Positions 5,970 through 61,841 of a stretch of DNA of 64,000 nt are shown here, one piece after another. Where the stretch lies: assembly GCF_028641065.1 (NCBI RefSeq), contig NW_026576818.1:1-64000 (forward strand). Reading direction: 5' to 3'. Each line of letters opens with the position of its first letter. Position 1 is the first letter of the stretch. A model generated the notes under the pieces. It searched no databases. It saw only the letters and a list, made by a program, of their open reading frames with translations, and was not told the DNA's origin. The stretch comes from Leucoraja erinacea. Its lineage: Eukaryota. The position numbers were made by a program, and so were the translations under genes.

Positions 5970-5998
5970 TGAGACCAGTCAGGCGTCAGTGATAGGAT

Positions 5999-6231: not shown

Positions 6232-6506
6232 CGTCAGTGATAGGATACTTGATAGTCAGGGGAAAAGAAGGAAATTCTGTGAGGATGGGACAGATGAATG
6301 CATGGTGGAAAGGTTGGAGCAGGAAGTCAGATTATTGGATTTTACTTCGGAGTCACGTGAGTGACTACGTGAAGAACCCGCTCAGTGCGCAGGCGCGGCA
6401 TTAACGCCAGCAGTGCAACAGCGGCGGCAGCTGGAGTCCGGCTCTCCAGCTGCAGTTTAAAAACGGACCGTCAGGTGAGTATATTGAACAGGAGAAAAAA
6501 AAAGAG

Positions 6507-7757
6507 TTGAGTGCGACCAAAAATGAGTTCACGCCAAAAACGACTCAAAGAGAACTGCCCCCTGCCCGACTCCACCAGAGGAGGGTTCAATATCAGGCGG
6601 CAGGACTGCTCTTGGAGCGCTCCACTATCCCCGAGGCCGAGCCAAGCCAAGTGCCACTAATACCTGAACAGCGGACAGGGAGGAAAGCCACTAGGAAAAC
6701 AAGCCGGCCGGTCATTTCCGATTCGTCGGAGGGGGAAATGTCTCCACCAAAACGGAGGAGAGACAGCCGCCTGAGCTGTATTCAACAGCTCCTGGAGCAA
6801 ATACTCCAGCGAGATACGCAACCAGAGCGTTCTCATGGAAGTAGGTCAGTTGCCTCCTCTACAGTGTCTTGTGCACTGCCCTCTGCTCCCTCATTATTAG
6901 AGGCTAGCACAGGTGACCAGGGCTGGGCTGGTCTGCAACAGGGGCTGGCGGACGAGTTCGGGTGTATGCAAGGGGAGCAGGAGCACGAAGAGCTGCTGGG
7001 TGTCGTGGACCGCTATGCAGCAACCCCACGCGCAGGAAGATCGCTGGAACCAAAGATGGTGGCCAGCATAAACCACCTCTCCAACAAGGCCTTACAGGAG
7101 AAAGTCCTTTTGGAAGCCTTGGAAGAATACACAGCACCAGATAACTGTGAGGCACTCAAGGTAAAGAGTGTGAATAACCAAATTTGGAGGCAGCTGGGGC
7201 AACAGATTCGGAACCAGGAATTAAAACTGCAGCGGATCCTAAGGCTCCTGACGTCGGCCATCACGGCCTTTGCTCATTCCACGGAACACATAGATATGGG
7301 TAAGTTCCAACAGGATGTGCTAGCACTGATGTGCAACACACAATTCGAGACTAACAATCTCCGGCGGGACAACATAAGACCTGCCCTCAATCCCAAATTT
7401 GCGGGGTTATGCAAAACCCCTACAGCAGAAACAGATGCACTGCTATTTGGGAAAGACCTCAACAAGAGATTGAAGGACATGGAAGAGGCAGCAAAACCTT
7501 TCGGCCTCATGAGGGCAGGCCCGGGAACGAGCAGGACAATGCATCCGACACCCAGCCGGCAGCACCCCTCGGCATCCACCAGTCGACATCCACAACCAGG
7601 GACTGGTGAAAGCTCGAGGACCGCTTATTACTACCCCCAAAGGTCTTTTTTAGATCAGGGCCCAGAGCGGACCCCATGGAAAATGCGCCGCCCCCCAACA
7701 TCGCAAGCATATCAGGCAAACAGAGCCTACAAGAAAAAGCAGAGAAAACAACAATAA
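6507..7757 (+). CDS. DIRS ORF1 (gag-like); true start uncertain
   Basis: 416-aa ORF with a DIRS ORF1-like core (PDNCEALKVKSVN..IW, RRDNIRPALN, LLFGKDL) upstream of RT. Confidence 0.75.
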   Translation: MSATKNEFTPKTTQRELPPARLHQRRVQYQAAGLLLERSTIPEAEPSQVPLIPEQRTGRKATRKTSRPVISDSSEGEMSPPKRRRDSRLSCIQQLLEQILQRDTQPERSHGSRSVASSTVSCALPSAPSLLEASTGDQGWAGLQQGLADEFGCMQGEQEHEELLGVVDRYAATPRAGRSLEPKMVASINHLSNKALQEKVLLEALEEYTAPDNCEALKVKSVNNQIWRQLGQQIRNQELKLQRILRLLTSAITAFAHSTEHIDMGKFQQDVLALMCNTQFETNNLRRDNIRPALNPKFAGLCKTPTAETDALLFGKDLNKRLKDMEEAAKPFGLMRAGPGTSRTMHPTPSRQHPSASTSRHPQPGTGESSRTAYYYPQRSFLDQGPERTPWKMRRPPTSQAYQANRAYKKKQRKQQ

Positions 7758-7759
7758 CC

Positions 7760-9694
7760 ATGGAGGTAGGTGGGTCTGGTTCCTGCCAGCATATAGCGAA
7801 CAAGGGTGCTCTACTAACAGGGGGGTGATTACACTTGTTCAAAAAAGCATGGGGTACTGTCACAAGTAACAAGTATATACTCAACAGTATTAGTGGATAC
7901 AAAATTGAATTTAAATCAGAGATATTGCCGCCAGTTCAACATTGGCCCCAAAGGGTATTTTCTCCCTCCGAGAAAGAAAAGCGGGAGGGACAAGCTGAAC
8001 AGGAGAGGCTTATTGCAAAGGGGGTCATTGAAAAGACCAAACATGAACCTTTGGAATTTGTATCAAATATATTCACTAAAACCAAAAAAGATGGTGGATG
8101 TCGCATCATCATTGACTTAACATCACTAAATAAATTTGTTGAGTATATACATTTCAAGATGGAGATGTTTGTTACTGCCAGACAACTGATCTCCAAAGGA
8201 TACTTTATGGCAAGCATTGATATTAAAGATGCTTACTATCTAATACCCATACACAATGATCATTGCAGATACCTAAAATGTATCTGGTTGGGGCAGCTGT
8301 GGCAGTATAGAGCATTGCCCAATGATCTAACTTCAGCCCCTAGACTATTCACAAAAATATTAAAAGTAGCCATGGGAATACTGAGGAAACAAAAGCATAT
8401 AGTCATGGCATATCTGGATGATATCCTCATAGTAGGAAAAATGAAGGAATTGGCTGTGGCAGCAGTATTAGCTACAAAACAGCTCCTTGAAACACTGGGG
8501 TTCGTACTACATCCAGATAAATTTAGGTTGAAGCCATCTACTACCATGGATTACCTGGGCTTCACTATCAACTCAATCCACATGACTGTTACTTTGCCAA
8601 GAGAAAAAATGGTTGCATTAGCACAATCATGCAACAACTTAATGGTCAACAAACGACCAACTATTCGACAAGTAGCTAGAGTGATTGGGATAATTGTAGC
8701 AACAATTCCGGCTACACAATTCGGACCTTTGCACTATCAAAATCTACAAAGAGCAAAGGTACATGCACTACAACGATATTCGGGTCACTATGACCGAATC
8801 ATGAAATTACCCACTGAAGCTATATCAGAGCTATAGTGGTGGGCAGAGAATGTTTGGCACAGTTTCAGCCCTATCATCATCACCAACCCTACTTTAGTTA
8901 TTAAAACAGATGCCAGTGCTCAAGGCTGGGGAGCAACTAACTCCATATCCAGCACAGGTGGCAGATGGACTAAACCAGAATCATCTTTACTACACACACT
9001 GGGCATCAATTATCTAGAAATGTTGGCCGCCTATTATGGTTTAAAAGCATATGCATCTAAAATGCAGCACTTGCATGTGCGGTTACGGATTGATAATACT
9101 ACGGTGGTGGCTTATGTTAACCATATGGGGGGCATAAAATCATTATCATGCGACAAATTGGTCAATGTGATCTGGCAATGGTGTGTTGAAAGACATATTT
9201 GGCTATCAGCTGCCTATCTACCAGGTAAGCTAAATACAGTGGCAGACACCAGGTCACGAAAATTTAATGATAACATCGAATGGATGTTAAACCCTAAAAT
9301 CTTTGCTAAAGTTATTAAGCAATATGGAACGCCAAATATCGATTTGTTTGCATCAAGACTGAATCACCAGTTACCTATGTATGTGGCTTGGGAACCAGAC
9401 CCAGAGGCAGCAGCGGTAGATGCCTTCACGCAGGATTGGGGAAATTTCTTCTTCTATGCTTTCCCTCCCTTCTGCCTCATCAGTCGGGTATTTCGAAAAA
9501 TACAGATTGACTCTGCTTCTGGGATTTTGATCATGCCCGACTGGCCTACCCAGCCATGGTTCCCAGTCCTTCACGACATGGTGGTCGAGTCACCTATGGT
9601 TTTCCTTAGTGACCCACGGTTGTTGACTCACCCAGTATCTGGCATAAGCCACCCATGCCATGAACACATCAAACTCCTGGGTTGTAGGTTTTGA
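7760..9694 (+). pseudogene. DIRS ORF2: RT, RNase H and methyltransferase-like domain, with two in-frame stops (7826, 8834)
   Basis: ATG 7760 is in frame with ORFs 7835..8836 (DIKDAY, YLDD) and 9020..9694 (IDNTT, IDLFAS, FPPF); TDAS lies between them. Confidence 0.9.
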
Positions 9695-9714
9695 ATAGAC
9701 CTTACCAGGGACTG

Positions 9715-10169
9715 TATCAGAACTGAACAAGGAGGAGGACACAAATGCAGGCTCAGACACAGGGCAGATCAGTCTTCAGAGTTTAATCGGTCCAAGTCGG
9801 TACACAGGTAAGCAAAACAGAGGCAACAGTACAATCTAGGAGCAGGCAAAAAACAGAGGTCGAAAAACAGGCAATGGTCGAGGTCACAAGATTTCTAGAG
9901 CTGGAACGAGGTGATACCAAGTAGCATACACAACAAACTGGCAATGAGAACTAAAACACAAAGGGCTTAAATACAGACTAGCAGGGGATAACGAGACACA
10001 GGTGAAACACATCAGGGCGGGGCCAATAATCACATGAGGGTAAACGACCTGACAGGAAATGGGACCTGAAACAAGAGGAGATGCGAGACACCAAAATAAA
10101 ACAAGAATGCACACTCTAATACTAAAAAACAATAAGAAACAGAAACTAGATCAAACCCGAGACCTGACA
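9715..10169 (-). repeat. Complete 3' LTR of the Gypsy (partial copies at about 11979-12152 and 13962-14136)
   Basis: Minus strand TGTCAG...CTGATA, preceded by the PPT. Confidence 0.85.
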
Positions 10170-13100
10170 GTACCCCCCCTCCACGGCCGGCTCCCGACGG
10201 CCCAGGATCTTCAGGATGTTGGCGCCGATATTCCCTGATAAGTTCCGGGTCGCATATGTTGCGAGCCGGCACCCAAGACCGCTCCTCAGGTCCATAACCC
10301 TCCCAATCCACAATGAAATGGACCATCTTAAAAAATCTGTCCACCACAGTCATGACTGAGGTGTTACCTTCAGAAGAGGGCAAGCCCGTAACAAAGTCCA
10401 TGGAGATGTCTGACCAGGGGCGTGAGGGGACAGGCAGCGGATTCAGGAGGTCAAAGGCGGCCCGACGTGAGGTCTTGTTCCGAGCACAAATACTGCAGGC
10501 GGCGACGTACTCCTTAATCCCCCTCTCCATGGAAGGCCACCAAAACCTTTGTTTGGCCACAAACAGGGTTAGGCGGACACCGGGATGACAGGAGATCCGA
10601 GACGTATGAGCCCAGTGAATCACCAGTGAACGAAGAGACTCGGGAACAAACAGACGATTAGAAGGACACCCTTGCGGAGACTGAACACCAGCAGTAGCCT
10701 CGGAAACTCTCTTCTCAATCTCCCAAGTAACTGCCCCAACAAAACAGGAAGCAGGCAGAATGGGAGTTGAAACCTTAGGGGACGGGTCAGGATCAAACTG
10801 TCTGGAGAGAGCATCAGGTTTACCATTCTTGGCACCAGGGCGGTAAGACAGTACAAAATCAAATCGATTAAAGAAGAGAGCCCACCTTGCTTGGCGCGAG
10901 TTGAGGCGTTTGGCTGACTTGATGTATTCCAGGTTCTTGTGGTCTGTCCAAACTAGAAACGGCTGCTCTGTGCCCTCCAACCGGTGTCTCCATTCCTCCA
11001 ACGCTGTTTTAACCGCTAACTGTTCACGGTTACCCACATCGTAATTTATCTCAGCAGGAGAAAGTTTCTTTGAGAGGAAAGCGCAGGGATGTAATCGACC
11101 ACCTGTGGAGGATTTCTGGGAGAGTACGGCAACGATGCCCACACCCGAGGCATCCACCTCAAGCACGAACTGGAGTGACGGGTCAGGGTGAACCAGGATG
11201 GGGGCTGAGGAGAAGCTCCTCTTGAGTCTCATAAATGCAGTTTCTGCTTGAGGGGACCAAGAGAAAGGCACATGGGGCGAGGTAAGAGCATGAAGTGGTG
11301 CAGCAGTGACACTAAAGTTCCGGATAAACTTCCTATAAAAATTAGCAAACCCAAGGAACCCCTGAAGTCGCTTACGACTGGAGGGTGTAGGCCAGGTGGC
11401 CACAGCACTGACCTTGCTCGGGTCCATCTGTATACCAGCAGGTGATAACCAAGGAATTGAACAGTGTTAACATGAAATTCACATTTCTCAGCTTTCACAA
11501 ACAGATCATTCAGGAGCAAACGTTCCAGCCCTGGTGTACATGCTGCACATGGGACGTTTCGTCTGGAGAAAAGATCAAAATGTCATCAAGGTACACAAAC
11601 ACAAATCTGTTCAGCATGTCCCGTAATACATCATTAACCATTCCTTGAAAAACTGCTGGAGCATTAGTAAGACCAAACGGCATGGCCAGATATTCATAAT
11701 GACCACTGGGTGTGTTAAACGCAGTTTTCCATTCATCCCCCTCCCTTATCCTCACCAGATGATATGCATTTCTAAGATCTAACTTGGTGAATACCTTAGC
11801 GTCTTTTAACAGTTCAAATGCAGAGGAGATAAGAGGAAGAGGGTATCTGTTTTTAACAGTAATGTCATTGAGTCCTCTGTAGTCAATGCAGGGCCGAAGT
11901 GTACCATCCTTCTTATCCACAAAGAAGAATCCAGCTCCTGCAGGTGAAGAGGAAGGTCTGATGATCCTAGCAGCAAGGGACACAGGTGAAACACATCAGG
12001 GCGGGGGCAATAATCACATGAGGGTAAACGACCTGACAGGAAATGGGACCTGAAACAAGAGGAGATGCGAGGCACCAAAATAAAACAAGAATGCACACTC
12101 TAATACTAAAAAACAATAAGAAACAGAAACTAGATCAAACCCGAGACCCGACAGTACCCCCCCTCCACGGCCGGCTCCCGACGGCCCAGGATCTTCAGGA
12201 TGTTGGCGCCGATATTCCCTGATAAGTTCAGGGTCGCATATGTTGCGAGCCGGCACCCAAGACCGCTCCTCAGGTCCATAACCCTCCCATCCACAATGAA
12301 ATGGACCATCTTAAAAAATCTGTCCACCACAGTCATGACTGAGGTGTTACCTTCAGAAGAGGGCAAGCCCGTAACAAAGTCCATGGAGATGTCTGACCAG
12401 GGGCGTGAGGGGACAGGCAGCGGATTCAGGAGGTCAAAGGCGGCCCGACGTGAGGTCTTGTTCCGAGCACAAATACTGCAGGCGGCGACGTACTCCTTAA
12501 TCCCCCTCTCCATGGAAGGCCACCAAAACCTTTGTTTGGCCACAAACAGGGTTAGGCGGACACCGGGATGACAGGAGATCCGAGACGTATGAGCCCAGTG
12601 AATCACCAGTGAACGAAGAGACTCGGGAACAAACAGACGATTAGAAGGACACCCTTGCGGAGACTGAACACCAGCAGTAGCCTCGGAAACTCTCTTCTCA
12701 ATCTCCCAAGTAACTGCCCCAACAAAACAGGAAGCAGGCAGAATGGGAGTTGAAACCTTAGGGGACGGGTCAGGATCAAACTGTCTGGAGAGAGCATCAG
12801 GTTTGCCATTCTTGGCACCAGGGCGGTAAGACAGTACAAAATCAAATCGATTAAAGAAGAGAGCCCACCTTGCTTGGCGCGAGTTGAGGCGTTTGGCTGA
12901 CTTGATGTATTCCAGGTTCTTGTGGTCTGTCCAAACTAGAAACGGCTGCTCTGTGCCCTCCAACCGGTGTCTCCATTCCTCCAACGCTGTTTTAACCGCT
13001 AACTGTTCACGGTTACCCACATCGTAATTTATCTCAGCAGGAGAAAGTTTCTTTGAGAGGAAAGCGCAGGGATGTAATCGACCACCTGTGGAGGATTTCT

Positions 13101-14136
13101 GGGAGAGTACGGCAACGATGCCCACACCCGAGGCATCCACCTCAAGCACGAACTGGAGTGACGGGTCAGGGTGAACCAGGATGGGGGCTGAGGAGAAGCT
13201 CCTCTTGAGTCTCATAAATGCAGTTTCTGCTTGAGGGGACCAAGAGAAAGGCACATGGGGCGAGGTAAGAGCATGAAGTGGTGCAGCAGTGACACTAAAG
13301 TTCCGGATAAACTTCCTATAAAAATTAGCAAACCCAAGGAACCCCTGAAGTCGCTTACGACTGGAGGGTGTAGGCCAGGTGGCCACAGCACTGACCTTGC
13401 TCGGGTCCATCTGTATACCAGCAGGTGATAACCAAGGAATTGAACAGTGTTAACATGAAATTCACATTTCTCAGCTTTCACAAACAGATCATTCAGGAGC
13501 AAACGTTCCAGCCCTGGTGTACATGCTGCACATGGGACGTTTCGTCTGGAGAAAAGATCAAAATGTCATCAAGGTACACAAACACAAATCTGTTCAGCAT
13601 GTCCCGTAATACATCATTAACCATTCCTTGAAAAACTGCTGGAGCATTAGTAAGACCAAACGGCATGGCCAGATATTCATAATGACCACTGGGTGTGTTA
13701 AACGCAGTTTTCCATTCATCCCCCTCCCTTATCCTCACCAGATGATATGCATTTCTAAGATCTAACTTGGTGAATACCTTAGCGTCTTTTAACAGTTCAA
13801 ATGCAGAGGAGATAAGAGGAAGAGGGTATCTGTTTTTAACAGTAATGTCATTGAGTCCTCTGTAGTCAATGCAGGGCCGAAGTGTACCATCCTTCTTATC
13901 CACAAAGAAGAATCCAGCTCCTGCAGGTGAAGAGGAAGGTCTGATGATCCTAGCAGCAAGGGACACAGGTGAAACACATCAGGGCGGGGGCAATAATCAC
14001 ATGAGGGTAAACGACCTGACAGGAAATGGGACCTGAAACAAGAGGAGATGCGAGGCACCAAAATAAAACAAGAATGCACACTCTAATACTAAAAAAAATT
14101 AAGAAACAGAAACTAGATCAAACCCGAGACCTGACA
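9715..14136 (-). mobile_element. Chromoviral Gypsy (sushi-like) LTR retrotransposon, internally deleted and tandemly duplicated
   Basis: RT (YLDDILIFS), RNase H (VDAS, TDHKNL), IN zinc finger and chromodomain ([13 protein letters not shown]); PPT GGAGGGGGGGTAC; 5-bp TSD GACTG (9710-9714/14137-14141); unit of about 1983 bp present twice. Confidence 0.95.
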
Positions 14137-14168
14137 GACTGGGATTATCCGAATGAACTATCACCACC

Positions 14169-15092
14169 ATGGCGGCATCCCTGCGAACATCCACCAGGAA
14201 GCAGTATTTAACCTACATCAAAAAATGGGAAAAGTACCGCCAGGAAACAGGGACAACATACGAAACTGCCACAACCACCGACGTGCTGGAGTTCCTGGCC
14301 CATCTACACCATGACGAAAGGATCAGTTACAATGCCATCAATGCAGCACAAAGCGCCCTGTCTGCTTACCTAAAACCAGCAGGACAGCAGGCCATGGGAT
14401 CCCATCCACTGGTGGTAAAACTCATGAAGGGCATTTTTAATATTAAGCCCCCTAAACCCAGGTATACCCATGTTTGGGATATCAGTGTGGTATTGACATA
14501 CCTCAGGGGATGGCCACCAGCTAGATCCCTCAGCCTCGAGCAATCTACATTAAAAACGCTCATGCTAATAGCACTCGTATCTGCTCAGAGGGTCCAGTCG
14601 CTGCACAAATTAAGACTGGACAACATGGTGATCACCCCAGACCAGATTACGTTCATCATTCTAGGTCTGGTGAAACAAAGCAGGCCAGGAACGCCCAATC
14701 CACTGGTGGTATTCCGGGCCTACCCACCAGAGCCAAGGTTGTGTGTGGTGACCCATCTACAGCAATACCTAGACACAACCCACAATCTCAGAGGGAGTGA
14801 AAAAGCCTTATGGGTCAGCCACAAGAAACCTCATGGACGGGTAACGAGCCAAACCATTTCACGGTGGCTCAAACAGATGCTGAAAGCTGCTGGAATAGAC
14901 ACTAATACTTTTAAATCCCATTCAACTAGGGCAGCATCGACAACAGCGGCTGAACGAATGGACGTCCCGGTTGACCACATTCTCAATACGGCAGGATGGT
15001 CGAGGGAAACGACGTTCAGAACATTTTATAATAAGCCGTTGATGAAGCCTGACTTGTTTGCAGACAGAATATTACAAACTGCAAATATTTAA
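14169..15092 (+). CDS. DIRS tyrosine recombinase (N-terminus at about 9691-9714, separated by the Gypsy)
   Basis: Catalytic motifs AQRVQSL, HSTRAAS, AGW and TFRTFY; removing the Gypsy restores the frame PYQGL|GLSE*TITTMAAS. Confidence 0.9.
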   Translation: MAASLRTSTRKQYLTYIKKWEKYRQETGTTYETATTTDVLEFLAHLHHDERISYNAINAAQSALSAYLKPAGQQAMGSHPLVVKLMKGIFNIKPPKPRYTHVWDISVVLTYLRGWPPARSLSLEQSTLKTLMLIALVSAQRVQSLHKLRLDNMVITPDQITFIILGLVKQSRPGTPNPLVVFRAYPPEPRLCVVTHLQQYLDTTHNLRGSEKALWVSHKKPHGRVTSQTISRWLKQMLKAAGIDTNTFKSHSTRAASTTAAERMDVPVDHILNTAGWSRETTFRTFYNKPLMKPDLFADRILQTANI

Positions 15093-15258: not shown

Positions 15259-15599
15259 GTCTTCACGTATTCACTCACGTGACTCCGAAGTAAAATAGTA
15301 AGATTAAACGAGAACTTACCAGTTCGAGGTTTGATCTGTATTTTATGAGGAGTTACGATGAGGGATTACGTGCCCTCCGCTCGCACCCTCATTATATAGA
15401 TCAAACTAGCAAACTGATGTCTCCTTATCTTTACTATGTTTACTTCAAATAACTGTGTCTATCTGTGATTCCACACCGCAGCTTGGAAGTATGCCGCACC
15501 TGCGCACTGAGCGGGTTCTTCACGTAATCCCTCATCGTAACTCCTCATAAAATACAGATAAAACCTTGAACTGGTAAGTTCTCGTTTAATCTTACTATT
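15259..15599 (+). repeat. DIRS internal complementary region (about 15259-15373) and right ITR plus extension (about 15490-15599)
   Basis: ICR = complement of the left end (cacgtgactccgaagtaaaa) fused to the complement of the right end (tagtaagattaaacgagaacttaccagtt); 15492-15526 is complementary to 6366-6400. Confidence 0.9.
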
Positions 15600-15629
15600 A
15601 TAGCATTTAAGAAGGAACTGCAGATGCTG

Positions 15630-23464: not shown

Positions 23465-23615
23465 TTCTGATTGGCGGAGCGAGCGATTATGATTAGATAT
23501 CCAATCAGAACGTTCACAGGAGAAGTGTCATTAAACATCTCACCGACCGTCCAATGACGATCCGCTCCTGCTCCATCCCTCATTAGCATAGGGTGACGCC
23601 GCTGCCTATTTAATC
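23465..23615 (+). promoter_or_regulatory. Histone H2B promoter
   Basis: Three CCAAT boxes (ATTGG about 23470, CCAAT 23501 and 23551), TGACG motifs, octamer-like CTCATTAGCATA (about 23579-23590), TATA-like CTATTTAA (about 23606). Confidence 0.8.
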
Positions 23616-23690
23616 CGAGCGCCGAGCGGTTTCTGGTCACTTTTGTGCAAAGAACATTTTTTGCTTTTGTGTTTGAAATCCACCGAGGAA

Positions 23691-24083
23691 ATGCCTGATC
23701 TGCCGAAAACAGTCCCCAAGAAGGAAACAGCCGCCAAGAAGGGCGCAAAGAAAGCTTTGCCGAAATCCGCAGGCAAAGGGGGCAAGAAGCGCAGGAGGTC
23801 GAGGAAGGAGAGTTACTCCATCTACATCTACAAAGTGATGAAGCAGGTTCACCCAGATACCGGCATCTCCTCCAAGGCCATGGGCATCATGAACTCGTTC
23901 GTCAACGATATTTTCGAGCGCATCGCGGGCGAGGCTTCCCGCCTGGCGCATTATAACAAGCGGGCGACCATCAGTTCCCGAGAGATTCAGACCGCCGTGC
24001 GCCTGCTTCTTCCCGGGGAGCTGGCCAAGCACGCCGTGTCGGAAGGGACAAAGGCGGTGACCAAGTACACCAGTTCCAAATAA
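23691..24083 (+). CDS. H2B: Histone H2B (130 aa), replication-dependent, intronless
   Basis: MPDLPK...[27 protein letters not shown]...[11 protein letters not shown]. Confidence 0.97.
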
Positions 24084-30834: not shown

Positions 30835-31219
30835 ATCCCCACCTCAAGACGCTGCCCTCTGCCTGGCTATAGGATGCTTCTCCTCCTGAAGCCGCCCCCA
30901 TCCCCCCCTGCAGGACACCCCCTCCCCCATCAGCCCATGAGAGCACCCGACTAAAGCCGCCCTTTCTCTCGGCTGCAGGACGTTTGCCTCCCCCGGGGTG
31001 GAAGATTGCAACCTTCACGTGGTCCGCCCTGTTTCGACTAATGTAATCAGCTCGACGTGCACAAACAGAAGATCAAATAGAACAAGCCACCCCCACCCCA
31101 CCCCGACAGCCCCCGCCTCAAAAAATGTTTTGCACAAATTCTTCAGTGAGTCGAGAGGATTGAGAATTACAACAAATTACAACCGCTCAATCTCTCTATA
31201 TTAAAATTGTCTCTTTTTT

Positions 31220-34200
31220 TTCCAACAGCAAATAGCCATCAAGAGGCAGTGAGCAGCAGAACACAACTAGAGACAACAAGAACCGCACCTGAGGCAACAT
31301 CCAATAGAGTCATCCAGCATGTCAAAGACACCCATACGTCCACCATCATCCCAGTGTGGGTGTCAGCCACAAGTGAGCCTAATCGTGAAGTTCTTGTGTA
31401 TGCACTTCTGGATACACAGAGTGACACAACCTTTCTCCTCGAAGACACTGCAAAAGCTCTACACGTGAAGAACGAACCATTTCAGCTAAAGCTCTCCACA
31501 AGGACTTCAAGAAACACAGTTGTGTCCTGTAGGAGACTGACTGGTCTACAAGTAAGAGGATTTTACTCAGACAAGATAATCCAGCTGCCAGTGACCTACA
31601 CCAGATAATTCATACCTGCAAACAGAGATCATATTCCCTCACCAGAGACTGCAAAGGCATGGCCTCATCTCGAACACATCGCAGATGACATAGCTCCACA
31701 TCAAAGCTGTGACGTCGGCTTACTAATTGGCTACAACTGTCCTCAAGCTCTCGTCCCAAGACAAGTGTTACATGGTGAAGAAAATCAGTCCTTTGCACTG
31801 AAAACCAACTTGGGCTGGAGTGTAGTGGGTTATGGCAACCTATGTCTCGATTATGGAGATGCTATTGGAGTGAGTCACCAGGTTATCATGAAGCAAGTGA
31901 TATCAGGTATTCAGTCCACTTCAAACCTCACAAGCGAAGTGCATTATGTCTGTAGAACACAGATCAAGGAAGTAGCCTCACCTGCAGCTGTCATCAAGGT
32001 GCTGGAAGCTGACTTTGTGGAAAGAATTTCAGAGGAAGGCAACATCGCTCAAGAAGACCTCCGATTACTGTCAAGGATGGAAAAAGGCATCAGGCTCAAG
32101 GAGGATGGTCACTATGAGATGCCACTGCCGTTTAAGAAAGAAAGACCCAGCTTACAAGATATGTGCCATCCATCATCTCAGGTGCCTAGAAAGGAAGCTG
32201 AAAAGAAATGAACAGTATTACAAAGACTACAAGACCTTCATGGACGAGACCATAACCCGTGGAGATGCAGAAAAGGTCTCACAAGAAGACATCCGTAAAG
32301 CTCCAGCATGGTACATTCCCCACCATGGGGTGTATCATCCGCAAAAGCCTGGGAAAATTCTTGTCGTTTTTGACTGTTCCGCGAGGTATCAAGAGACAGC
32401 CTTGAATGATCATCTCCTGACAGGTCCAGAGTTGACGAACACCTTGTTGGGAGTCCTTTGTCGTTTTCGTAGAGGTCCAGTGGCGATCATGTGTGACATA
32501 GAACGCATGTTTCATCAGTTCCATGTAAAGGCAGAAGATCAGGATTACCTACGTTTCCTATGGTGGGAGAATGGAAATCTTGAAGCACAACCCTCCATCT
32601 ATCGGATGAAAGTCCACTTGTTTGGTGCAGTTTCCTCTCCTGGCTGTGCCAACTTTGGACTCAAACACCTGGCCGCTGAAGGACGAGGACGCTTCAGTGA
32701 AGACACCATCCAATTCATCCAGAAGAATTTCTATGTGGATGATGGCTTGGCAAGTGTAGCATCTGAAAGGCAAGCAATCAAACTAGTGAAAGAAGCGAGA
32801 GAGCTATGTAGCACAGGCAAACTTCGGCTACATAAGTTCATCTCTAACAGCAAGGAAGTCCTAGCCACAATCCCTAAAGAGGAATGTGCTGAAGCTGCCA
32901 AGGACCTGGACATGGCACTGGGAGAACAACACATGGATAGAGCACTCGGTGTCCAGTGGTGTGTGGCTTCTGACGAATTCCAGTTCAGGGTAATTGTCAA
33001 AGAAAATCCATTCACCCGAAGAGGAGTCTTGTCCACGGTTGCCTCAGTGTATGACCCGCTCGGATTTGTGGCACCCTTCATCTTGGTAGGAAAGCAGATC
33101 TTGCAGCAGATGTGTCGTGACAAGCTCAGTTGGGATGACACCTTACCAGATGACCTTCTACCCCTGTGGGAATCTTGGCACCAAGACCTGAAAAACCTGG
33201 CTGGTGTGAAGATCTGGAGATGCTACGCTCCACCAAGTTTCAATGTCCAGCACTATGAGCTCCACCATTTCTCCGATGCCAGTGTGACGGGCTATGGAGT
33301 TTGCTCATATCTCAGAGCGGTCAGCACATCAGGTGAAGTCCACTGTACCTTAGTAATGGGAAAGTCAAGAGTCGCCCCTACTAAGGTGACGACCATACCA
33401 AGACTAGAGCTGTCAGCAGCAGTGGTAGCTGTCCGCATCAGTGACATGCTCAAGAAAGAGCTCGAAGTAGAATGCTGTCAAGAAATCTTCTGGACTGATT
33501 CAAAGGTTGTACTTGGATACATCAGTAATGAAGCCAGAAGATTCCACGTGTTCGTAGCAAACCGCGTGGAACGCATCAAGCGAAGCACAGAGTCTGCGCA
33601 ATGGAGGCATGTAACTTCTGAGGAGAACCCAGCAGATCACGCCTCAAGAGGTCTCACAGCAGGACAACTTATAGCCTCCAAACCGGTTCACCTGGAGAGA
33701 CCCATAGTTAGATAATATTTTGAACTAATATTTTATATGCAGTATGTATGTCTCTAAGTTGTTCTAAGAAATCACATGTGATTTGGTGGGAGTGTAACTG
33801 CCCCACATCGGCAGTTAGTTAAATTCTGAACCTCACGGTTTTTGGTTCCTACCTGAAATAGTAGCGTTCCTAAGGGGGGAACTAATTGCCGACTTAGTTT
33901 CCGGGGGGCACGGTTGTTGGCGCACACAGAAGCCATGACTAAGAAGAAACCAAGAAATACCTCTTAAGTAGTAAGCAGTGGACGAGGTATGTTGTTTATT
34001 TGCTTGGTTAGTGTGGTGTTGTGTTGCTGTATGGACGTACATGCATGTATTTTGTAAACTGCATTTTTATTTTGTTTGTTTTGTTTTTTGTTGCCTTGTT
34101 TTTGGCTCAGTTCTCACGGGTTGGTTGGAGCCGAAAATAAACCCCGTATTTAACCACGATCTCGGGCCTCGTGTACTACTTGGGAGCTACAGTTACAGTT

Positions 34201-36013: not shown

Positions 36014-36034
36014 GCCTCTCACTCTCTGCGTATC

Positions 36035-36447
36035 TCGGGCAGGTCTGGGCTCTGCGTATAAAAAGAGATAGCACCAGTTAGATTATCACTGAGCCGCGAC
36101 TCGAGTGAAACATCATCGTATCTGGTCGAGGGAAAGGAGGCAAAGGATTAGGCAAAGGCGGGGCAAAGCGGCACCGCAAAGTGCTTCGCGATAACATCCT
36201 GGGCAAAGATAGCTCTGCTATAGGATCTTTGCTGGGCATCACCAAGCCAGCTATCCGCCGCCTGGCTCGGCGTGGTGGGGTCAAGCGGAACTCGGGTCTA
36301 ATCTACGAGGAGACCCGCGGGGTGTTGAAGGTTTTCCTGGAGAATGTGATCAGGGACGCGGTCACCTACACCGAGCACGCCAAGCGCAAGACGGTCACTG
36401 CCATGGATGTGGTGTACGCTCTGAAACGACAAGGTCGCACTCTCTAC
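36035..36447 (+). pseudogene. H4: Histone H4 pseudogene with core promoter
   Basis: TATAAAA at about 36057; ATG lost (atc gta tct); [21 protein letters not shown] from 36121; 33-nt in-frame insertion; ends at GRTLY with no GFGG or stem-loop. Confidence 0.93.
36204..36231. mobile_element. Putative DNA-transposon excision footprint in H4
   Basis: CAAAGATAGCTCTGCTATAGGATCTTTG flanked by duplicated CTGGG. Confidence 0.7.
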
Positions 36448-37045
36448 CAAAGATTATATAGGATACGCAGAGAGTGAGAGGCGGGGAGAGGAGGAGACAA
36501 AGAGACAGACAGCTTCCTCTCATATTCCAGCTCCACGTCCCAGATTCCTGAAAACATTTTTCAAACGGTTTGCCCACAAACCAACCGAAATTTAGCGCTC
36601 CGGCCAAACTTTCAGACAGACATTCCGTGGTAAAAGTCAGTCAGTGATATTACCGCTGTCAAATTAATTTGTCTCCTTCCGGTTCATCCCCGGAGCCCGT
36701 TCCCTCTGCCGATATCGCCCACCCCATAGCGTTCAGCAGCTTTTAACACGGACGATTTGGCAATATTACTGAGTTGATGCATGGGCTCTGAGGCGGGGAT
36801 TTTGTCAGTGTTATTGTCTCACTGACAAGGAAACGGGTTTGAACTCAGCTTGAAACCAAACGTATGCCCAGTCCGAGTGAGGTTTAGCCCGGACATACCA
36901 TTTAGTTGTATTCCATATACTGGATACCGGGGGGAGGGGTGGGGGTGCAGCGAGTGTCAGCGAGTTACAAGGAACCCCCGGCAATTTAAACGAGTCCCCA
37001 TTGGCACTGAGCTTGTCTTGGGACAGGGATCGCTTGAGTCTGGAT

Positions 37046-37086
37046 CAGCTCTTTCCTGAGAGATGTGGGTGGCTCTGAGAAGAGCC
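37046..37086 (-). terminator. Histone 3' stem-loop and HDE of H1
   Basis: CCCAAC-GGCTCTTCTCAGAGCC-ACCCA followed by GGAAAGAGCTG. Confidence 0.92.
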
Positions 37087-37122
37087 GTTGGGTTCAGGTG
37101 TTTACAATGTGCGCTTTATAAT

Positions 37123-37782
37123 TCACTTTTTGGTCATTGCCCTCTTGGGTTTCGCCGATTTGGTCTTCGCCTGGCCTTTTACCGGCTTCTTGACCGCCTT
37201 CGCCTTTTTGACTACGGCCTTTTTTTGTTTTTTCGGCGCCGCGTTCTTGGGCGATGATTTCTTCGCCGCCATTTGTTTAAGCGCTGGTTTCTTGGCCACA
37301 ACTTTCTTGGTGAGAGATTTCTTCATCGATGATCTTTTGGTGGTAGATTTTTTTGCCAGTAATTTCTTGGTCGGGGTTTTCCTGGACGTTGATTTCTTGT
37401 TCTTGGATGTTTTGGCTGCTGGAACCGCTTTCTTTGCCGACTTCACGGCGCCTTCTCCCTGACCGGTCTTGAAAGAACCCGAGGCGCCCACGCCCTTGAT
37501 CTGAACCAGGGAACCGTTTGCTAATTTCCTCTTGATGCCCGTCTTGATCAGGTGGCGGCACTTCTCCACATCCACACCCTTGGCGGCCAGTCCCTTCTTT
37601 ATCGCATAGAAAGACATCCCTCGGCGATCGTGGCAATCCGCCACAATGTTGTCGATCTGGTCGCCCAGCTTCGGACCGGCTGCCTTCTTCCGGGCGGGCG
37701 CCTTCTTCTTCTTTTTGGGAGCCTTGGTTTGGGCGGCGGGGACGGTTTGAGGAGCCGCTTCAGCTGCTGCGGTCTCGGTCAT
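37123..37782 (-). CDS. H1: Histone H1 (219 aa), replication-dependent, divergent globular domain
   Basis: MTETAAAEAAP N-terminus, winged helix ending LVQIKGVGASGSFK, Lys/Ala/Pro-rich tail, stem-loop. Confidence 0.93.
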   Translation of the reverse strand: MTETAAAEAAPQTVPAAQTKAPKKKKKAPARKKAAGPKLGDQIDNIVADCHDRRGMSFYAIKKGLAAKGVDVEKCRHLIKTGIKRKLANGSLVQIKGVGASGSFKTGQGEGAVKSAKKAVPAAKTSKNKKSTSRKTPTKKLLAKKSTTKRSSMKKSLTKKVVAKKPALKQMAAKKSSPKNAAPKKQKKAVVKKAKAVKKPVKGQAKTKSAKPKRAMTKK

Positions 37783-37854
37783 GTCGGTGACTCTGCACAA
37801 ACTCTCTCTGACACTCAGGATTGAGTGAGAAATGAAGCGAGAGGCGGCGGCACA

Positions 37855-44330: not shown

Positions 44331-44691
44331 ATAGGAGGGGCACGAGAGGGTGGAGTGGAGATAATTTGTGTCGGAGTGGGTGGAGGAGGGGAGAGAGGAA
44401 TGTATATATGCAGCTTTAAGGGACATTGGTCAGATAGCATTTGGAGTATTGCATACAGTTCTGGTCACTCCATTACAGGACTGATGTGGAGGCTTTGGGG
44501 AAGGCGCAGAGATGGTTAACCAGGATGGTTTAAAAACAAGCAACTGCAGATGCTGGTTTACAAAAATGACACAATGTGCTACAGTAACTCTGCGGGACAG
44601 GCAGCATCTCTGGAGAGATCAAATGGGTGACTGAAGAAACACCCAGACACATTACCCATTCCTTCCACCATTTTGTGTTTACGCAAGGCCT

Positions 44692-46484
44692 TTACCTGGA
44701 GGAGCGGGCAAAGGCCATGCCACAGATCGGGCAGGTGAAGGGGCACTGGCCGCTGTGGTCTCGCCGGTGCTCCAGCAGGTGGTCAAGGCGGGTGAAGCCC
44801 TTACCACAGGACGGGCAGGCGAAGGGACGCTCACCGCTGTGGGTACGCCGGTGCTGCCACAGGCTGGACATGCGGGTGAAACCCTTGAACACTCAGCGCA
44901 CACAAAGGGTCTCTCTCTGGTGTGTATCCACTGGTGCTCCCGCAGCCCCCGTGCTCTCGTCACAGTGGGAGCAGCTGCTCGGTGGCGTGGGCCCGCCGGT
45001 GCTGCCGCAACGCCCGCGGGCTGTCAAACCGCTCACTGCAGTACGGGCAGTCGTAGGGCTGGCCACTGGTGTGCACGCGCTGGTGCGACAGAGCGTGGGA
45101 CGCCCTGGCAAAGCGCTCTCCACACACCGGGCTGGGGTAGGGGCGGTCGCCAGCGTGCACCCGCTGGTGGTACAGCAGATTGGAGGGGCGGGTGAAGCCC
45201 TTGCCGCACTGCACGCACGTGTAGGGGCGCTCGCTGGCGTGGTTGCGCTGGTGCTCCAGCAGTTGACAGGACCGGGTGAAGCCCTTGCCGCACTGGGCGC
45301 AGGTGAAGGGGCGCTCGCCGGTGTGGGTGCGCTGGTGCTCCAGCAGGTTGCTGGACCGGGTGAAGCCCTTGCCGCACTGGGCGCAGGTGAAGGGGCGCTC
45401 GCCGGTGTGGGTGCGCTGGTGCTCCAGCAGGTGACTGGACCGGGTGAAGCCCTTGCCGCACTGGGCGCAGGTGTAGGGGCGCTCCCCGGTGTGGGTGCGC
45501 TGGTGCACCAGCAGGTCATTGGACTGGGTGAAGCCCTTGCCGCAGTGGGCGCAGGTGTAGGGGCGCTCGCCGGTGTGGGTGCGCTGGTGCCTCAGCAGGT
45601 TGCCGGAGCGGGTGAAGCTCTTGCCGCACTGGGCGCAGGTGAAGGGGCGCTCGCCGGTGTGGATGCGCTGGTGCACCAGCAGGGTGCTGGAGCGGTGAAG
45701 CCCTTGCCGCACTGGGCGCAGGTGTAGGGGCGCTCGCCGGTGTGGGTGCGCTGATGCACCAGCAGGTGCTTGGACCTTGTGAAGCCCTCGCCGCAGTCGC
45801 TGCAGGTGTAGGGGCGGTCGCCGCTGTGGGTATGCTGGTGCTTCAGCAGCTTGCTGGAGCGGGTGAAGCCCTTGCCGCAGTCGCTGCAGGTGTAGGGCCG
45901 CTCCCCGGTGTGCACGCGCCTGTGCCTCTTCAGGTCCGTGGAAGACTTGAAGTCTTTGCCGCAGACAGAGCAGGTGAAGGGCCGTACACTGCTGTGCACC
46001 CGCAGGTGCTCCCGCAGCCCCGACATCCGGGCAAAGCTCTTGCCGCAGGTGAAGCAGCAATAGGGCTTCTCGCCCGTGTGCAGCCACCAGTGGGCCTTCA
46101 GGTCATTTGTCGTCTTGAAGCTCATGCCACAATCGGGGCAGGTGAAGGGCCTCTCGCACGGAGTGCACGCGGTTGTGCTGCAGCAGTTTGTCGTAGCGAG
46201 TGAAGCTCATGCCGCACTCCGAGCAGTCGAAGGGGCGTTCTCCCGTGTGCACCCGCCGGTGGGCCTCCAGCCGGCTCGGCTTCTGGTAGGCCTTGCCACA
46301 CACGTCGCACTCATAACGCTTCTCCTTGTTGTGTCCCGTCATGTGGTCCTCCATCGATGCTCAGCCCCTCGAAGCTCAACCCGCACACCGAGCAGATGGG
46401 GGGGGGGGGCTCACCGGCACCCTGGCCGCCCTCAATGGCCGCTCACGTCCCCGTCTCTCCGTCCACAGCAACGGCTCCTAAACC
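44692..46484 (-). pseudogene. Tandem C2H2 zinc-finger gene of about 19-20 fingers, frameshifted as assembled; no KRAB domain seen
   Basis: Repeated CxxC-HxxxH fingers with TGERPF/Y linkers across ORFs 46103..46354, 45592..46125, 44960..46087, 44679..44963 and 44692..44892; putative splice acceptor ctcctgcag at 46485-46493. Confidence 0.9.
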
Positions 46485-50693: not shown

Positions 50694-52812
50694 CAGGTGC
50701 ACAACCTTTTATCCGAAGATCCAAATAACGAAAACCTCCGAATAGCGACATTTTTTCGGTCCTTGAAGAAAGGTCCTTGAAAACGTTCACCGAGGGCGGC
50801 CCGCAGAGGTGACAGCGGAACCTCCGGTCGGTCCTCGAAGAAAGGGGAACTAAATCCCCATTCATAAAAGAGAAGGTGAGGGTATATTGCGCGGGAGGGT
50901 TAATAATTGACAATATGCTGCTACCTGCCAGCTGAGTTTAAAACTTCCCACGGTAGACTCACGATACACAGTGTATCGTGAGTCTTGCGTGGGAATCTTT
51001 TAACTCAGCGTGCAGGCAGCAGTAGATTGTCGCTCCCTTCAGTTTCACCCCACCTACACCCCTCTGCTTCCCGGCCATGTGTGTGACCCCTTCCCTCCCC
51101 TCTCCAGCTCCCCGCTCATTGCACCGGCGCGGGGGCTTTGTACTGTCTTCACGTCGCGATGCTAGCAGCACAGTGCCAGTCACCAGAGACGTCAGGACCA
51201 ACGGAACACCGACCCCCAGGCCCACTGCAAGCACGGAGATCCCAGATCAGCAACTCCAGCCCAGCCCCGTTCCAACTCCAGTGGAACACGCTCCCCGTAT
51301 GGGCAGAAGCTGATGGTGTGCAAGGGGTACGTCTTGTTCTTGGGGTGGCGCAGCTCGGGCTGTGGGCGAACTGCCACTTGTCGCCATAGCGGCCCATCGG
51401 GGAGCGGATTCCTCTGGAGTTGGAGGGGGAGGGGGGTATTGTGCTGTTTGATCGCCCCCTACTATTCCAGGGACAGGGAGACAGGACGTTCACCGAGGGC
51501 GGCCCGCAGAGGTGACAGCGGAACCTCCGGTCGGTCCTCGAAGAAAGGGGAACTAAATCCCCATCCATAAAAGAGAAGGTGAGAGTATATTGCGCGGGAG
51601 GGTTAATAATTGACAATATGCTGCTACCTGCCAGCTGAGTTAAAACGTTCCCACGGTAGACACGATACACAGTGTATCGTGAGTCTTGCGTGGGAACTTT
51701 CTAACTCAGCGGGCAGGGAGCAGCAGATTGTCGCTCCCTTCAGTTTCACCCCACCTACACCCCTCTGCTCCCCGGCCATGTGTGTGACCCCATCCCTCCC
51801 CTCTCCAGCTCCCCGCTCATCGCACCGGCGCGGGGGCTTTGTACAGTCTTCACGTCGGCGATGGCAGCCAGCAGGCTAGTGCAGTCACCGGAGACGTCAG
51901 GACCAATTGGATGTCGACCACCAGGCCCACCGCAAGCACGGAGAACCCAGAGACCCACAGCCTGCAGCAGCCCAGCCCAGCCCCGCTCCAACTACAGAGG
52001 AACCTGGGTTGCGGATGACGGGGCGCAGCTCGGGGCGTCGTAGGGGCCCATCGGGGAGCGGGTTCTTGTAGGGCCTGACGTCTCCAGCCACCTGCTATCC
52101 TCCGGGAACTGTACCGCCCTTGCAGGAGAGTGTGGTTGTTTGCAGTTGCAGAGGGAGGGGGCAAGGGCGGTACAGTTCCCAGTCTCAGCTCCAGTCCAGG
52201 GGGGCGGAGACGTCAGGACCAACGGGACAGCGACCCCCAGGCCCACTGCAAGCACGGAGATCCCAGAGACCCACAGCCAGCAGCAACTCCAGCCCAGCCC
52301 CGCTCCAACTCCAGAGGAACACGTAGGGGCAGAAGCTGATGGTGTGCAAGGTGTTCTTGGGGTGGCGCAACTCGGGCTGTGGGCAAACTGCCACTTGTCG
52401 CCGTAGCGGCCCATCGGGGAGCGGATTCATCTGGAGTTGGAGGGGGAGGGGGGTATTGTGCTGTTTGATCGCCCCCTGCTATCCCAGGGACAGGGAGACA
52501 CAGCGGCGTTTTAGACTGGTGGGCAATCACTTCCAAAGTTCTGCCCACACAGTCAGTACACCTCTCCTACACTGCATTTCATACAAACATTTATTCTGCA
52601 TGAAAAACCGACATTGAAGACTCAAACTCGCGACCGAATAACTGCCGGGATCAAGGCGCAAACTCGCGACCTTGCGGATATGAGCCGAGCACTCTACCAC
52701 TGAGCCAGCCATTAAAATCTACGCTAAAAAAATTCCATTCCGAAGACCGACAAATTCTGAATTACGAAAAGTGTCTGGCCCCAAGGCTGTCGGATAAAAG
52801 GTTGTGCACCTG
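50694..52812. mobile_element. Non-autonomous Tc1/mariner (Tigger/pogo-like) element
   Basis: Perfect 23-bp TIR CAGGTGCACAACCTTTTATCCGA; TA TSD; the empty site restores CR1 cagggaTAgtatcaaaac; internal duplication of about 700 bp. Confidence 0.92.
52645..52711 (-). other. Degenerate tRNA-like (Met, CAT) sequence inside the MITE
   Basis: TGGCTCAGTGGTAGAG A-box/D-arm, CGG-CTCATAT-CCG anticodon arm, AGGTCGCGAGTTTG B-box-like; acceptor stem not evident. Confidence 0.55.
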
Positions 52813-58076: not shown

Positions 58077-59257
58077 CAGGGCTCGAAATTAACGGTTGCC
58101 CGGGTGCCACTGACCACTCAAAGCGCCGCCGGGCAACCTAAACACCGAGTCATTTTGCCCGGCATAGCAATCAGATACTGGTTTGTACCAAAGATAGACA
58201 CAAAAAACTGGAGTAACTCCGCTGGTCAGGCTGCATCTCTGGAGAAAAGGAACGCTATGTTTTGTGTCGGCGGTGCCGGCTGTAATGCGTGGGAAAGATA
58301 CTAGGTGCGGGGTTTGGAAGTGTCGAAGCGAATGACGGGCCCCAAATCAAACCCTCCTCCTCCCGCGCCCCCGCCCGCCCTGATAGCGGCCGCTGATTGC
58401 AAACCCGCTAACGGCGCTTGCAAAACAAGTCCTCCCGCACGCCGAGCAGGGAGGAGGGAGGGAGGGGGAGGCCTCGGCATGCGCCGTTAGCGGGTTTGCA
58501 AGCCGAGGTCTTTATCAGGGCAGGCGGTGGGCGGGAGGAGGAGGTGATGGAGCTGCTGTCGCAGCAACAGCTGCTCATATGCGGGACCCGTCATTCGCTC
58601 CGACCCTTCTGAAGCAGCTGTACCAAAGATACTATAGCTATAGGATCTTTGAGCTGCACCGCTCGGCCCCGCACTTTGCTGTTGGCTGGCGGAGGAGGTG
58701 GAGGCGGTGGCGAGGAGATCCTAACGGCCAAGGCAGCGGGGCGGTGCGATGTTGACCGAGGAGGCCAAGGCAGCGGGCCGATGCACGATGTGCGCTGACC
58801 TTCCTTCCTCCCCCTCCCCTCTCTCTCTTGTACGCTCCCCTTATCCCGGGACCCCTCCACTGATCCCCATTCCCGCCTCTATTCAGTCCTCACTGATATC
58901 CCCTCTGCTCCCCTCCCCATCACCCCCCCCCCCCAATCTATTCATCCTGCACTGTTCACCCTATCCACCACGCATTGATTCTCCTGCCACCCCCCGTCCA
59001 TCCTACGCTGGTCCCCCAAGTCATCCTATACTTACGCCCATTCCCCTCCATCCTGCAGTTCTCCTCCATCCATCCTGTACTGATCGCCCATCCATCCTGT
59101 ACTAATCCACGCATTCATCCAGAACTGACCCACCCTCCATTTACCCTGCACCTTCCCCTCATTCATCCTGTAGTGATCCCCCATTCATCCAGCACAGACA
59201 CTCCGATCCACACTGTACTGACTCCCCCCCCCCCCCCCCAATCATCCTGCGCTGATC

Positions 59258-59291
<34 letters not shown>

Positions 59292-59570
59292 ATCCATCCT
59301 GTACTGATCCTCCCATTCAAGAAGAATGGGGGGAACAGTCTGAAGAAGGGTCTCGACCCGAAACGTTGCCTATTTCCTTCGCTCCATAGGTGCTGCCTCA
59401 CCCGCTGAGTTTCTCCAGCAGTTTTGTCTACCCCCATCCATCCGGTACTAACACTCCCCATTCAACACCACTGACATCCCCCGTGCTCTCCCCCTCGCAA
59501 TTTTATCTACTCCAACCAACATGTACTAATTCATCTGCCTCAATCCATCCATTCTGCACCGACTGCCTTC

Positions 59571-59608
<38 letters not shown>

Positions 59609-61841
59609 TATCCACCCCGCACTGACACACACCCCCTCCATGACCCTATTGTCCTGGAAATGTCTTCAGAGCGAACATTGACTATGTTTGATAACGGAAT
59701 GCAATCAAATGTGTTTTAATTCCCAATTATATTATTTGTTTTAATCCATAAAAATGGATTAATTAAATTGTGAACACGTGAAACATTAAAACCGCAGTGT
59801 TCGATTGTCACTGCTGCCGTTGACACGTTATTACAGAATTCATTTTGCGTCTAGCTTGGCAACCAGATACTGGTTTGTACCGAAGATAGACGCAAAAACT
59901 GGAGTAACTCCACGGGTCCGGCAGCATCTCTGGAGAAAAGGAAATCGAGATTTTGTGACGGTTGTAATGCGTGGGAAAGGTACTAGGTGCGTGGTGACGA
60001 AGGGTCGAAGCGACAGCGGCTCCATCTAATCCTCCCGCACCCCGCCCGCCCTGATAAGGGCTGCTGCTTGCAAACCTGCTTAACGGCGCACTTTCAAAAC
60101 AAACCCTCCCGCACGCCGAGGCCGGGAGGATGGAGGGAGGGGGAGGCCTCGGCGTGCGGGAGGGTTTGTTTTGAAAGTGCGCCGTAAGCAGGTTTGCAAG
60201 CATCGGCCGCTATCAGGGAGGAGGAGGAGATGGAACCGCTGCTGCCGCTGTGTGGGACCCGTCAATCGCTGCGACACTTCTGAAGCAGTTGCACGATAGA
60301 TACTATAGCTTTTGGATCTTTGAGCTGCACCGCTGGGCCCCGCACCGTGTTGTTGGCTGGCGGAGGAGGAAGCCGGTGGCGGTCAAGGCAGCGGGGCGAT
60401 GTCCGAGGAGCGCTGACCCTCCTTCCTCCCCACCGCGCCCCCCCTCTCTCTTGTACGCCCCCACCCCCCTTATCCTGGGACCCCTTCTCTACATCTAGCA
60501 CTGATCTCCATTCCCGCCTCTATTCAGTCCTCACTGACATCCCCTGTGCTCCCCTCTCCCTCTCCCCAACCACCCCCCCCCCCAATTTATTCATCCTGCG
60601 CTGATCACCCTATCCACCTCGCATTGATTCTCCTGCTACTCCTGATTCCCCAATTCACCTTGTACTTGCCCCTTTCCCATCCATCCTGCACTTCTCCTCC
60701 ATCCATCCTGTACTGATCCCCCATCCATCCTGTACTAATCCACGCATTCATCCCGTACTGACCCACCCTCCATTTACCCTGCACCTTCCCCTCATTCATC
60801 CTGTAGCGATCCCCCATTCATTCTGCACAGACCCTCCGATCCACACTGTACTGCCACCCCCCCCCAATTCATGCTGAACTCCTCCCCCCCCACCCATTAA
60901 TCCTGTACTGATCCTCCCATTCAAGAATGGGGGAACAGTTTGAAGAAAGGTCTCGACCCGAAACGTTGCCTATTCCCTTTGCTCCATAGATGCATCCTCA
61001 CCAGCTAAGTTTCTCCAGCACTTGTGTCTACCCCATCCATCCCGTACTGAACCCCCCCATTCAACATCACTGACATCCCCTGTGCTCTCCCCTCACAATT
61101 TTACCTACTCCAACCAACATGTACTAATTCACCAGCCTCAATCCATCCATTCTGCACCGACTGCCTTCTAGCCCCCCCCCCCCCCCCCCCCCCCCCCCTC
61201 CCCTGACCCTATTGTACTGGAAATGTCTTCAGAGCGAACATTGACTATGTTTGATAACGGAATGAAATCAAATGTGTTTTAATTCCCAATGTTATTATTT
61301 GTTTTAATCCATAAAGATGGATTAATTATATTGTGAACATGTGAACACAACATTAAAACCGCAGTATCAATGCTCTTAATATGGAATATCAGTACTGTAG
61401 TTATTTAATGAGCAACATTCACAACTATACGTACGCATATATGTTACCATGGTCCAGGATTTGTTGACACAGGTTGATCATACGCTGAATAATCCAACCA
61501 CATTTTTGTTTGGAAGTTGAAAGAACTAATAGAAATTGCATTAATTGCAATGTGTAAAAAGAGTTGAGATACTGTCTTATAATTTTGCTGTATATAATTG
61601 TGGGATATATCATGTCTTGATTGGTGAATGTTTAGTTTGTGACTTTATTTGAAGCAGAAATAATATGTGAATGCTTCATTGAGTATAATTCCGACTGGTA
61701 ACTACACACTTCGTCCGAGCTTATTATCGCACGCGTCATGCAAGCCATCTTAAATGACCACCTAAACTGTCATTTGGCAACCTAAAAGCTGCCAAGGTTG
61801 CCCGGCTGGCAACAGGGAAAAAAAGTTAAGCGAGAGCCCTG
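58077..61841. mobile_element. Putative non-autonomous hAT-like element containing a diverged tandem duplication of about 1.6 kb
   Basis: Termini CAGGGCTCGAAATTAAC / CAGGGCTCTCGCTTAAC with ttgcccgg/ggcaacc subterminal motifs; units at about 58170-59797 and 59862-61365; TSD not matched. Confidence 0.6.
58624..58651. mobile_element. Putative P-element-type excision footprint (diverged duplicate at 60295-60322)
   Basis: Near-perfect palindrome CAAAGATACTATAG|CTATAGGATCTTTG flanked by the 8-bp repeat AGCTGTAC/AGCTGCAC. Confidence 0.7.

Follow-up and report, generated by a model that had tools for sequence, protein, structure and literature searches.

The window analysed here, a stretch of 64,000 nucleotides from Leucoraja erinacea, contains a 28-bp palindrome that is framed by 8-bp direct repeats (58616-58659) and that is probably the scar left at the donor site of a cut-and-paste DNA transposon, most likely one of the P superfamily; excision, depth of cut and superfamily are what we infer from the geometry of the ends. 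The same end motif recurs, as had been claimed, at unrelated sites: in the repeat that hosts the scar, in a histone H4 pseudogene and in another contig of animal DNA (L002). The host is, as expected, a vertebrate, a rajid skate.

Structure of the probable scar and its empty site

58616-58623, + strand: left copy of the 8-bp target-site duplication, AGCTGTAC; with the C found at 58621 in contigs it is identical to the right copy
58624-58651, no strand: 28-bp double stub, CAAAGATACTATAG CTATAGGATCTTTG, two inverted element ends head-to-head with no spacer
58652-58659, + strand: right copy of the 8-bp target-site duplication, AGCTGCAC; loose ends of empty-site contigs join 58608-58615 directly here
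58480-58743, no strand: GC-rich high-copy repeat segment hosting the scar, with filled and empty subfamilies (tested range 58480-58800)
60287-60330, no strand: decayed paralogous copy of the scar, part of a tandem duplication of 1.6-1.7 kb and no event of its own
58077-61841, no strand: 3.77-kb unit, non-coding, whose inverted ends of 17 bp are imperfect; both copies of the scar lie in it

In the window itself the two 8-bp repeats are alike at seven of eight bases and the arms of the double stub are complementary at 13 of 14. Contigs from public runs remove both imperfections: a C at 58621, which accounts for more than 99% of the aligned depth in all four runs, makes the 8-mers identical, and a C at 58631 (63-81% of the aligned depth) makes the arms perfectly complementary. 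With the full geometry defined as 14-bp arms with at most one mismatch, a length of 28-42 bp and an 8-bp direct repeat with at most one mismatch, the window contains a single instance and 60 simulated windows (dinucleotide-Markov) contain none, which establishes the arrangement of two 14-bp inverted stubs between 8-bp repeats as real. Close inverted arms taken by themselves were found four times in the window and 21 times in the 60 simulations; a looser generic scan of the window returned the site at 58616 and nothing else. The loose count of the end motif in the window is not significant (nine with up to three mismatches, 6.2 expected; 22 of 100 shuffles reach nine); the weight of the observation lies in geometry and recurrence and not in the motif count. 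DNA folding (z = −3.2, −3.5 and −7.6; +0.5 for the decayed copy) merely restates the palindrome. A 122-aa open frame across the scar was dismissed as a gene, having neither relatives nor a Pfam match, and so was an RNA family, since Rfam gives only a histone stem-loop at 37046 in the window.

Contigs from four of 24 public runs (X1, X2, X20 and X7, under three organism labels) were aligned to 58480-58800. The numbers of aligned contigs, 338 for X1, 781 for X2, 1012 for X20 and 1060 for X7, identify the segment 58480-58743 as a high-copy repeat. Gapless alignments across the stub are common among these contigs. Among the loose ends listed, six contigs of X20 carry the letters of 58608-58615 and then a single 8-mer before 58652, and the same is seen before 58654 in 12 contigs of X20 and 21 of X7; all these groups continue from the single 8-mer into the right flank. 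Stub and one 8-mer are missing from these contigs, and filled and empty form thus differ by 28 + 8 bp. The upstream flank type of the empty sites is also seen together with the stub, both among the loose ends listed before 58608 (13 contigs of X2, 17 of X7) and in X7 records 31-32, which cover 58608-58698 without a gap. Since the upstream flank of the empty forms departs from that of the window beyond 8 bp, they show up as loose ends only; a joint skipping 36 bp was not listed in the contigs aligned to 58480-58800, and an empty form with the long flank of the window itself was not seen in them. Taken together, this shows that the palindrome is a true 28-bp insertion with an exact 8-bp duplication, and the 8-bp target-site duplication of the original prediction is confirmed at this event. 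Whether these empty forms are ancestral or arose by precise reversion, the duplication measures 8 bp.

The diverged duplicate reported at 60287-60330 was recovered by alignment. It lies in a tandem duplication (58150-59798 versus 59840-61365, 77% identity in self-BLAST), and independent local insertions at 58616 and 60287 are rejected; both are inherited copies of one old event. The scar at 58616 is a passenger of the high-copy repeat. It likely arose once elsewhere, in the master copy of another repeat, and would then have been multiplied with that repeat, which may be the hAT-like unit described below or a smaller one nested in it, before the sampled organisms split; the event itself likely predates their divergence. 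With this, and with the other two ends located within one H4 pseudogene, neither three or more hits within these 64 kb nor a preference for GC-rich or genic sites is supported. Promoter targeting was likewise rejected as unsupported.

The 3.77-kb unit around both copies has ends that are alike at 13 of 17 positions; a duplication flanking it was not found, nor was a Pfam match in its frames. From its termini we take it to be hAT-like. It contains repeated subterminal words and a GC-rich internal palindrome (58368-58530 and 60083-60185).

Related ends in a histone H4 pseudogene and in another animal contig

36118-36447, + strand: pseudogene of histone H4 that lacks its start codon and last four codons and has an in-frame insert of 11 codons
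36204-36231, no strand: second, independent double stub; it belongs to the 33-bp class, its left arm having lost 5 bp
36448-36461, + strand: lone 14-bp stub of an end at the very point where H4 stops; on the inner side it continues into inverted upstream DNA
36462-36482, − strand: inverted duplicate of 36014-36034 (21 bp of H4 upstream DNA), a rearrangement junction adjoining the lone stub

The 11-codon insert of the H4 pseudogene is the double stub at 36204-36231. Only 5 bp are duplicated at its flanks (CTGGG; 36199-36203 and 36232-36236), which is compatible with, but no proof of, an 8-bp duplication trimmed by 3 bp. The lone stub matches the end at 12 of 14 positions, and the chance of at least 12 of 14 at one given site is 3.2e-6. 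It may record a break inside a terminal repeat that was healed as an inversion. The related stubs reported at 36204 and 36448 are both real; they belong to a single H4 pseudogene, and the one at 36448 is a single end. From 36014 to 36482 the pseudogene appears inverted, with a 21-bp inverted duplication, and a LINE on its left is truncated at 36015 with a 2-bp overlap (microhomology).

A pattern of 20 bases from the end had four matches in metagenome contigs. Only in L002 does an inverted partner follow directly behind, giving a 33-bp double stub (chance 7.7e-6 per match); the other three have no partner and were taken as chance. Aligned with the H4 stub over its whole length and spacer, the reverse complement of the L002 stub shows a single 5-bp gap and a single substitution, and the best BLAST match of L002 in the window is the stub at 36204 (24/25, E = 9e-5). 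Besides the stub, no further similarity of L002 to the window was found. An Ig-domain exon identifies L002 as animal DNA, and in a weak search of 30 candidates from a database with skate proteomes this exon had no named relative. A non-skate, probably invertebrate animal is suggested as the host, not established. The flanks of the L002 stub match at seven of eight bases with a 3-bp offset. In L002 (2941-3005) a 9-bp tandem duplication precedes the stub, and the target duplication is blurred by arms that reach 3 bp beyond the stub into the flanks.

Probable excision by a P-type transposase and alternative origins

Terminal inverted repeats of the P superfamily start with CA (CANRG-type), and imprecise excisions of Drosophila P retain about 15-17 bp of each end. 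All ends seen here start with CAAAG, except the decayed one at 60295, and thus have the CA start of that superfamily. Its 7-8-bp target-site duplication is found at the flagged event; over the three double-stub events the 8 bp are intact in one, the host repeat (58616 and 60287), reduced to 5 bp in H4 and to the offset match in L002. Altogether three double-stub events and one lone end of 14 bp were seen, with two centre lengths (28 and 33 bp) between the same ends. Members of the P superfamily have subterminal repeats and internal THAP binding sites; subterminal DNA is absent from every copy of the scar seen.

Drosophila P transposase, whose insertions carry 8-bp duplications, cleaves one strand at the element boundary and its partner 17 bp further in, within the repeat; homologous repair or end joining then closes the break at the donor site (PMC7776569). 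The 17-bp overhang is stated again in PMC11368186. With this geometry, up to 17 nt of the element end are kept per flank, and the stub lengths of the four events (28 and 33 bp, and 14 bp for the lone end) would fit a long staggered cut of the P type, with two overhangs of about 17 nt in the double stubs. Insertion of the element would have used an 8-bp stagger. When the element left, a cut in one strand about 17 nt into each terminal repeat would have kept element sequence on both flanks as 3′ overhangs, which end joining would then have fused. The 28-bp class may then be the sum of 15 + 15 or 16 + 15, joined at a microhomology of 2-3 nt, and the 33-bp class, which has 15-bp arms around an asymmetric centre of 3 bp, that of 17 + 17 with an overlap of 1 nt or of 17 + 16. 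Either sum for the 33-bp class requires that the two ends are not alike at positions 16-18; identical ends would mean a stub of at least 18 nt on one side. At 36448 a broken end bearing a stub would have been joined to nearby DNA in inverted orientation.

The original prediction that the window lacks a transposase agrees with the Pfam scan of its stop-to-stop frames of at least 70 aa: none was found in the 274 of 296 frames scanned, the 22 left out being duplicated gypsy and simple-repeat frames, and the matches were to retroelements, histones and zinc fingers only. In viral contigs neither the double-stub pattern nor a degenerate P-transposase motif had a match. A 19-mer of the end matched there once, inside a phage ORF and without a partner, and a 15-mer matched at 45 loci, none of them with a convergent partner; four of these have a look-alike with two mismatches about 5 kb upstream, in the wrong orientation. 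Prokaryote genomes gave no match, and a long element with these ends was found in none of the viral, metagenome and prokaryote collections. The defining feature of the P superfamily is a transposase with a THAP domain, an RNase H-like DDE core and a GTP-binding insertion. Since the window offers no transposase and these collections no full-length element, the assignment to a superfamily rests on geometry; on the sequence at hand the family is filed as P-like, not as a proven member.

Duplications of 8 bp also occur in superfamilies such as Merlin and Zisupton. The stubs could accordingly be remnants of internal deletions, by aborted gap repair or by deletion between the ends, in an element of another superfamily with 8-bp duplications (hAT, MULE, Merlin or Zisupton), and no transposase ties the ends to P. 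Several superfamilies share such duplications: Ds is an example (PMC1978519), and the MULE Muta1 makes 8-9 bp and occasionally leaves remnants of its ends (PMC5225508). End stubs are therefore not unique to P: in some excisions of Muta1, as much as 13 bp of the end stays behind (PMC5225508). We nevertheless regard such an origin as unlikely. All seven ends keep about 9-20 nt and none is longer, whereas aborted gap repair would be expected to leave varied and mostly longer remnants. Ds scars are without ends (PMC1978519), and about 90% of Muta1 excisions from a duplication-bearing site are precise (PMC5225508). For hAT, the 8-bp duplication is present at the flagged site, but hairpin excision leaves no ends at the donor site (PMC1978519) and both are kept here; this mismatch bears on the reading as a scar, not on that as an internal deletion. 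For MULEs, a duplication of 8-10 bp fits; their terminal repeats are usually longer than 100 bp (PMC5225508), and stubs like those seen here could come from repeats of any length.

A shade less probable still is that the units of 28-33 bp were themselves mobile micro-MITEs, with 15-bp repeats and a spacer of 0-3 bp, inserted with an 8-bp duplication by a transposase acting in trans. The same 33-bp form, spacer included, in the skate H4 and in L002 speaks for this, as does the failure to find a longer element in the viral, metagenome and prokaryote collections searched. The two centre lengths and the lone end broken inside a repeat are, by contrast, what the repair of broken ends would give, and for P transposase the repeats do not suffice, as it also needs binding sites further inside the element (PMC7776569). 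An origin without any transposon, through chance or a local error of replication such as a template switch or a hairpin duplication, is very improbable and largely refuted. In its favour are the loose motif count, which is at chance level, and the flagged site being one ancestral event; against it, the insert bears no relation to its flanks, H4 and a further animal contig carry it too, and its geometry is missing from all simulations.

Relation to known elements and other features of the window

With Drosophila P the preferred reading, excision by a P-type transposase, shares the 8-bp duplication (PMC7776569), the CA...TG ends and the retention of both ends as stubs, whose summed length (28 or 33) would fit two overhangs of 17 nt. 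The skate differs in that the sequence of the repeat is unrelated, that the scars are natural and fixed instead of induced, and that no transposase, internal binding sites or full element were seen. P is among the superfamilies with traces in the human genome (PMC5753468), and P-like elements in vertebrates are already known: zebrafish Pdre2 is a P-like element that was mobile, with 13-bp repeats that start with CA and with 8-bp duplications, and zebrafish THAP9 excises but does not integrate in cell assays (PMC10983969). The Pdre2/zfTHAP9 system resembles the skate family in its vertebrate host, its short terminal repeats starting with CA and its 8-bp duplication; it differs in the sequence after CA and in excision assays that gave flanking deletions, and genomic double stubs are not mentioned in the excerpts of PMC10983969. 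P-MITEs of Anopheles (PMC1562414) and BuT5 (PMC3698922) are non-coding derivatives of P ends with duplications of 8 bp (8-9 bp in BuT5), but they are mobile and 200-2450 bp long, unlike the skate units of 28-33 bp without subterminal DNA. The footprints of Ds and Muta1 have in common with the skate scars a duplication in the range of 8 bp and repair by end joining (PMC1978519, PMC5225508). Ds scars differ in being derived from the flanks, with no element ends at the donor site (PMC1978519), and Muta1 in being excised mostly precisely, with at most 13 bp of an end occasionally left behind (PMC5225508).

In the literature searched, with Repbase and subscription papers outside its scope, we found no description of this end motif or of natural P-like double stubs in skates; the supplementary files of PMC12361510 that were searched do not mention P elements or THAP9, and PMC10824691 does not mention fish or shark terms. 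New are the skate family, apparently undescribed, its natural scars and the possible sharing of a family with a distant animal. It is tempting to speculate, and we do so tentatively, that a single P-like family, recognisable by its shared 20-bp end and 33-bp scar, was active both in the germ lines of skates and in the distant non-skate animal behind L002, that it probably spread by horizontal transfer, and that scars across the genome are a fossil record of its cleavage geometry. If so, the scars would show either that the 17-nt stagger of the P type acted naturally in a vertebrate, a long staggered cut that has been described for the Drosophila P transposase, or, should both ends be symmetric, that the enzyme cuts deeper (at least 18 nt) than Drosophila P. 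Natural double-stub scars would then give access in vivo to the cut depth of a cartilaginous fish's P-like enzyme and to end joining in the germ line, and they would hint at a transposase that is compatible with vertebrates and has integrated in one. Their small size hides such scars from repeat annotation, yet they disrupt genes, here one H4, and mark the site of an inversion.

Several other features of the window were observed. A DIRS-like element (4564-15092) has a gag-like region (6405-7757), RT (7829-8836), an RNase H-like region (8837-9694) and a tyrosine recombinase (14157-15092); it is interrupted by gypsy/chromovirus fragments in a tandem pair that is 99.6% alike (9995-14137), and an inverted DIRS fragment lies at 4619-5194. 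Two inverted-repeat units, at 15291-15602 (82-bp arms at 96% around 148 bp) and 5907-6402 (64-bp arms at 83%), have no clear flanking duplication and are possibly DIRS termini or MITEs. Two fragments of BEL/Pao retrotransposons were seen at 175-3429 and 31150-33715 (Pfam DUF1759; Peptidase_A17 and RT). Histone genes are dispersed, with an H2B open frame at 23592-24083 and a batoid-type H1 with its 3′ stem-loop at 37046-37785; the H1 is 92-94% identical to those of Amblyraja radiata and Leucoraja erinacea. A frameshifted array of C2H2 zinc fingers occupies 44682-46360, and a 120-bp palindrome occurs twice, at 50909-51031 and 51612-51732, with identical flanks within a local duplication.
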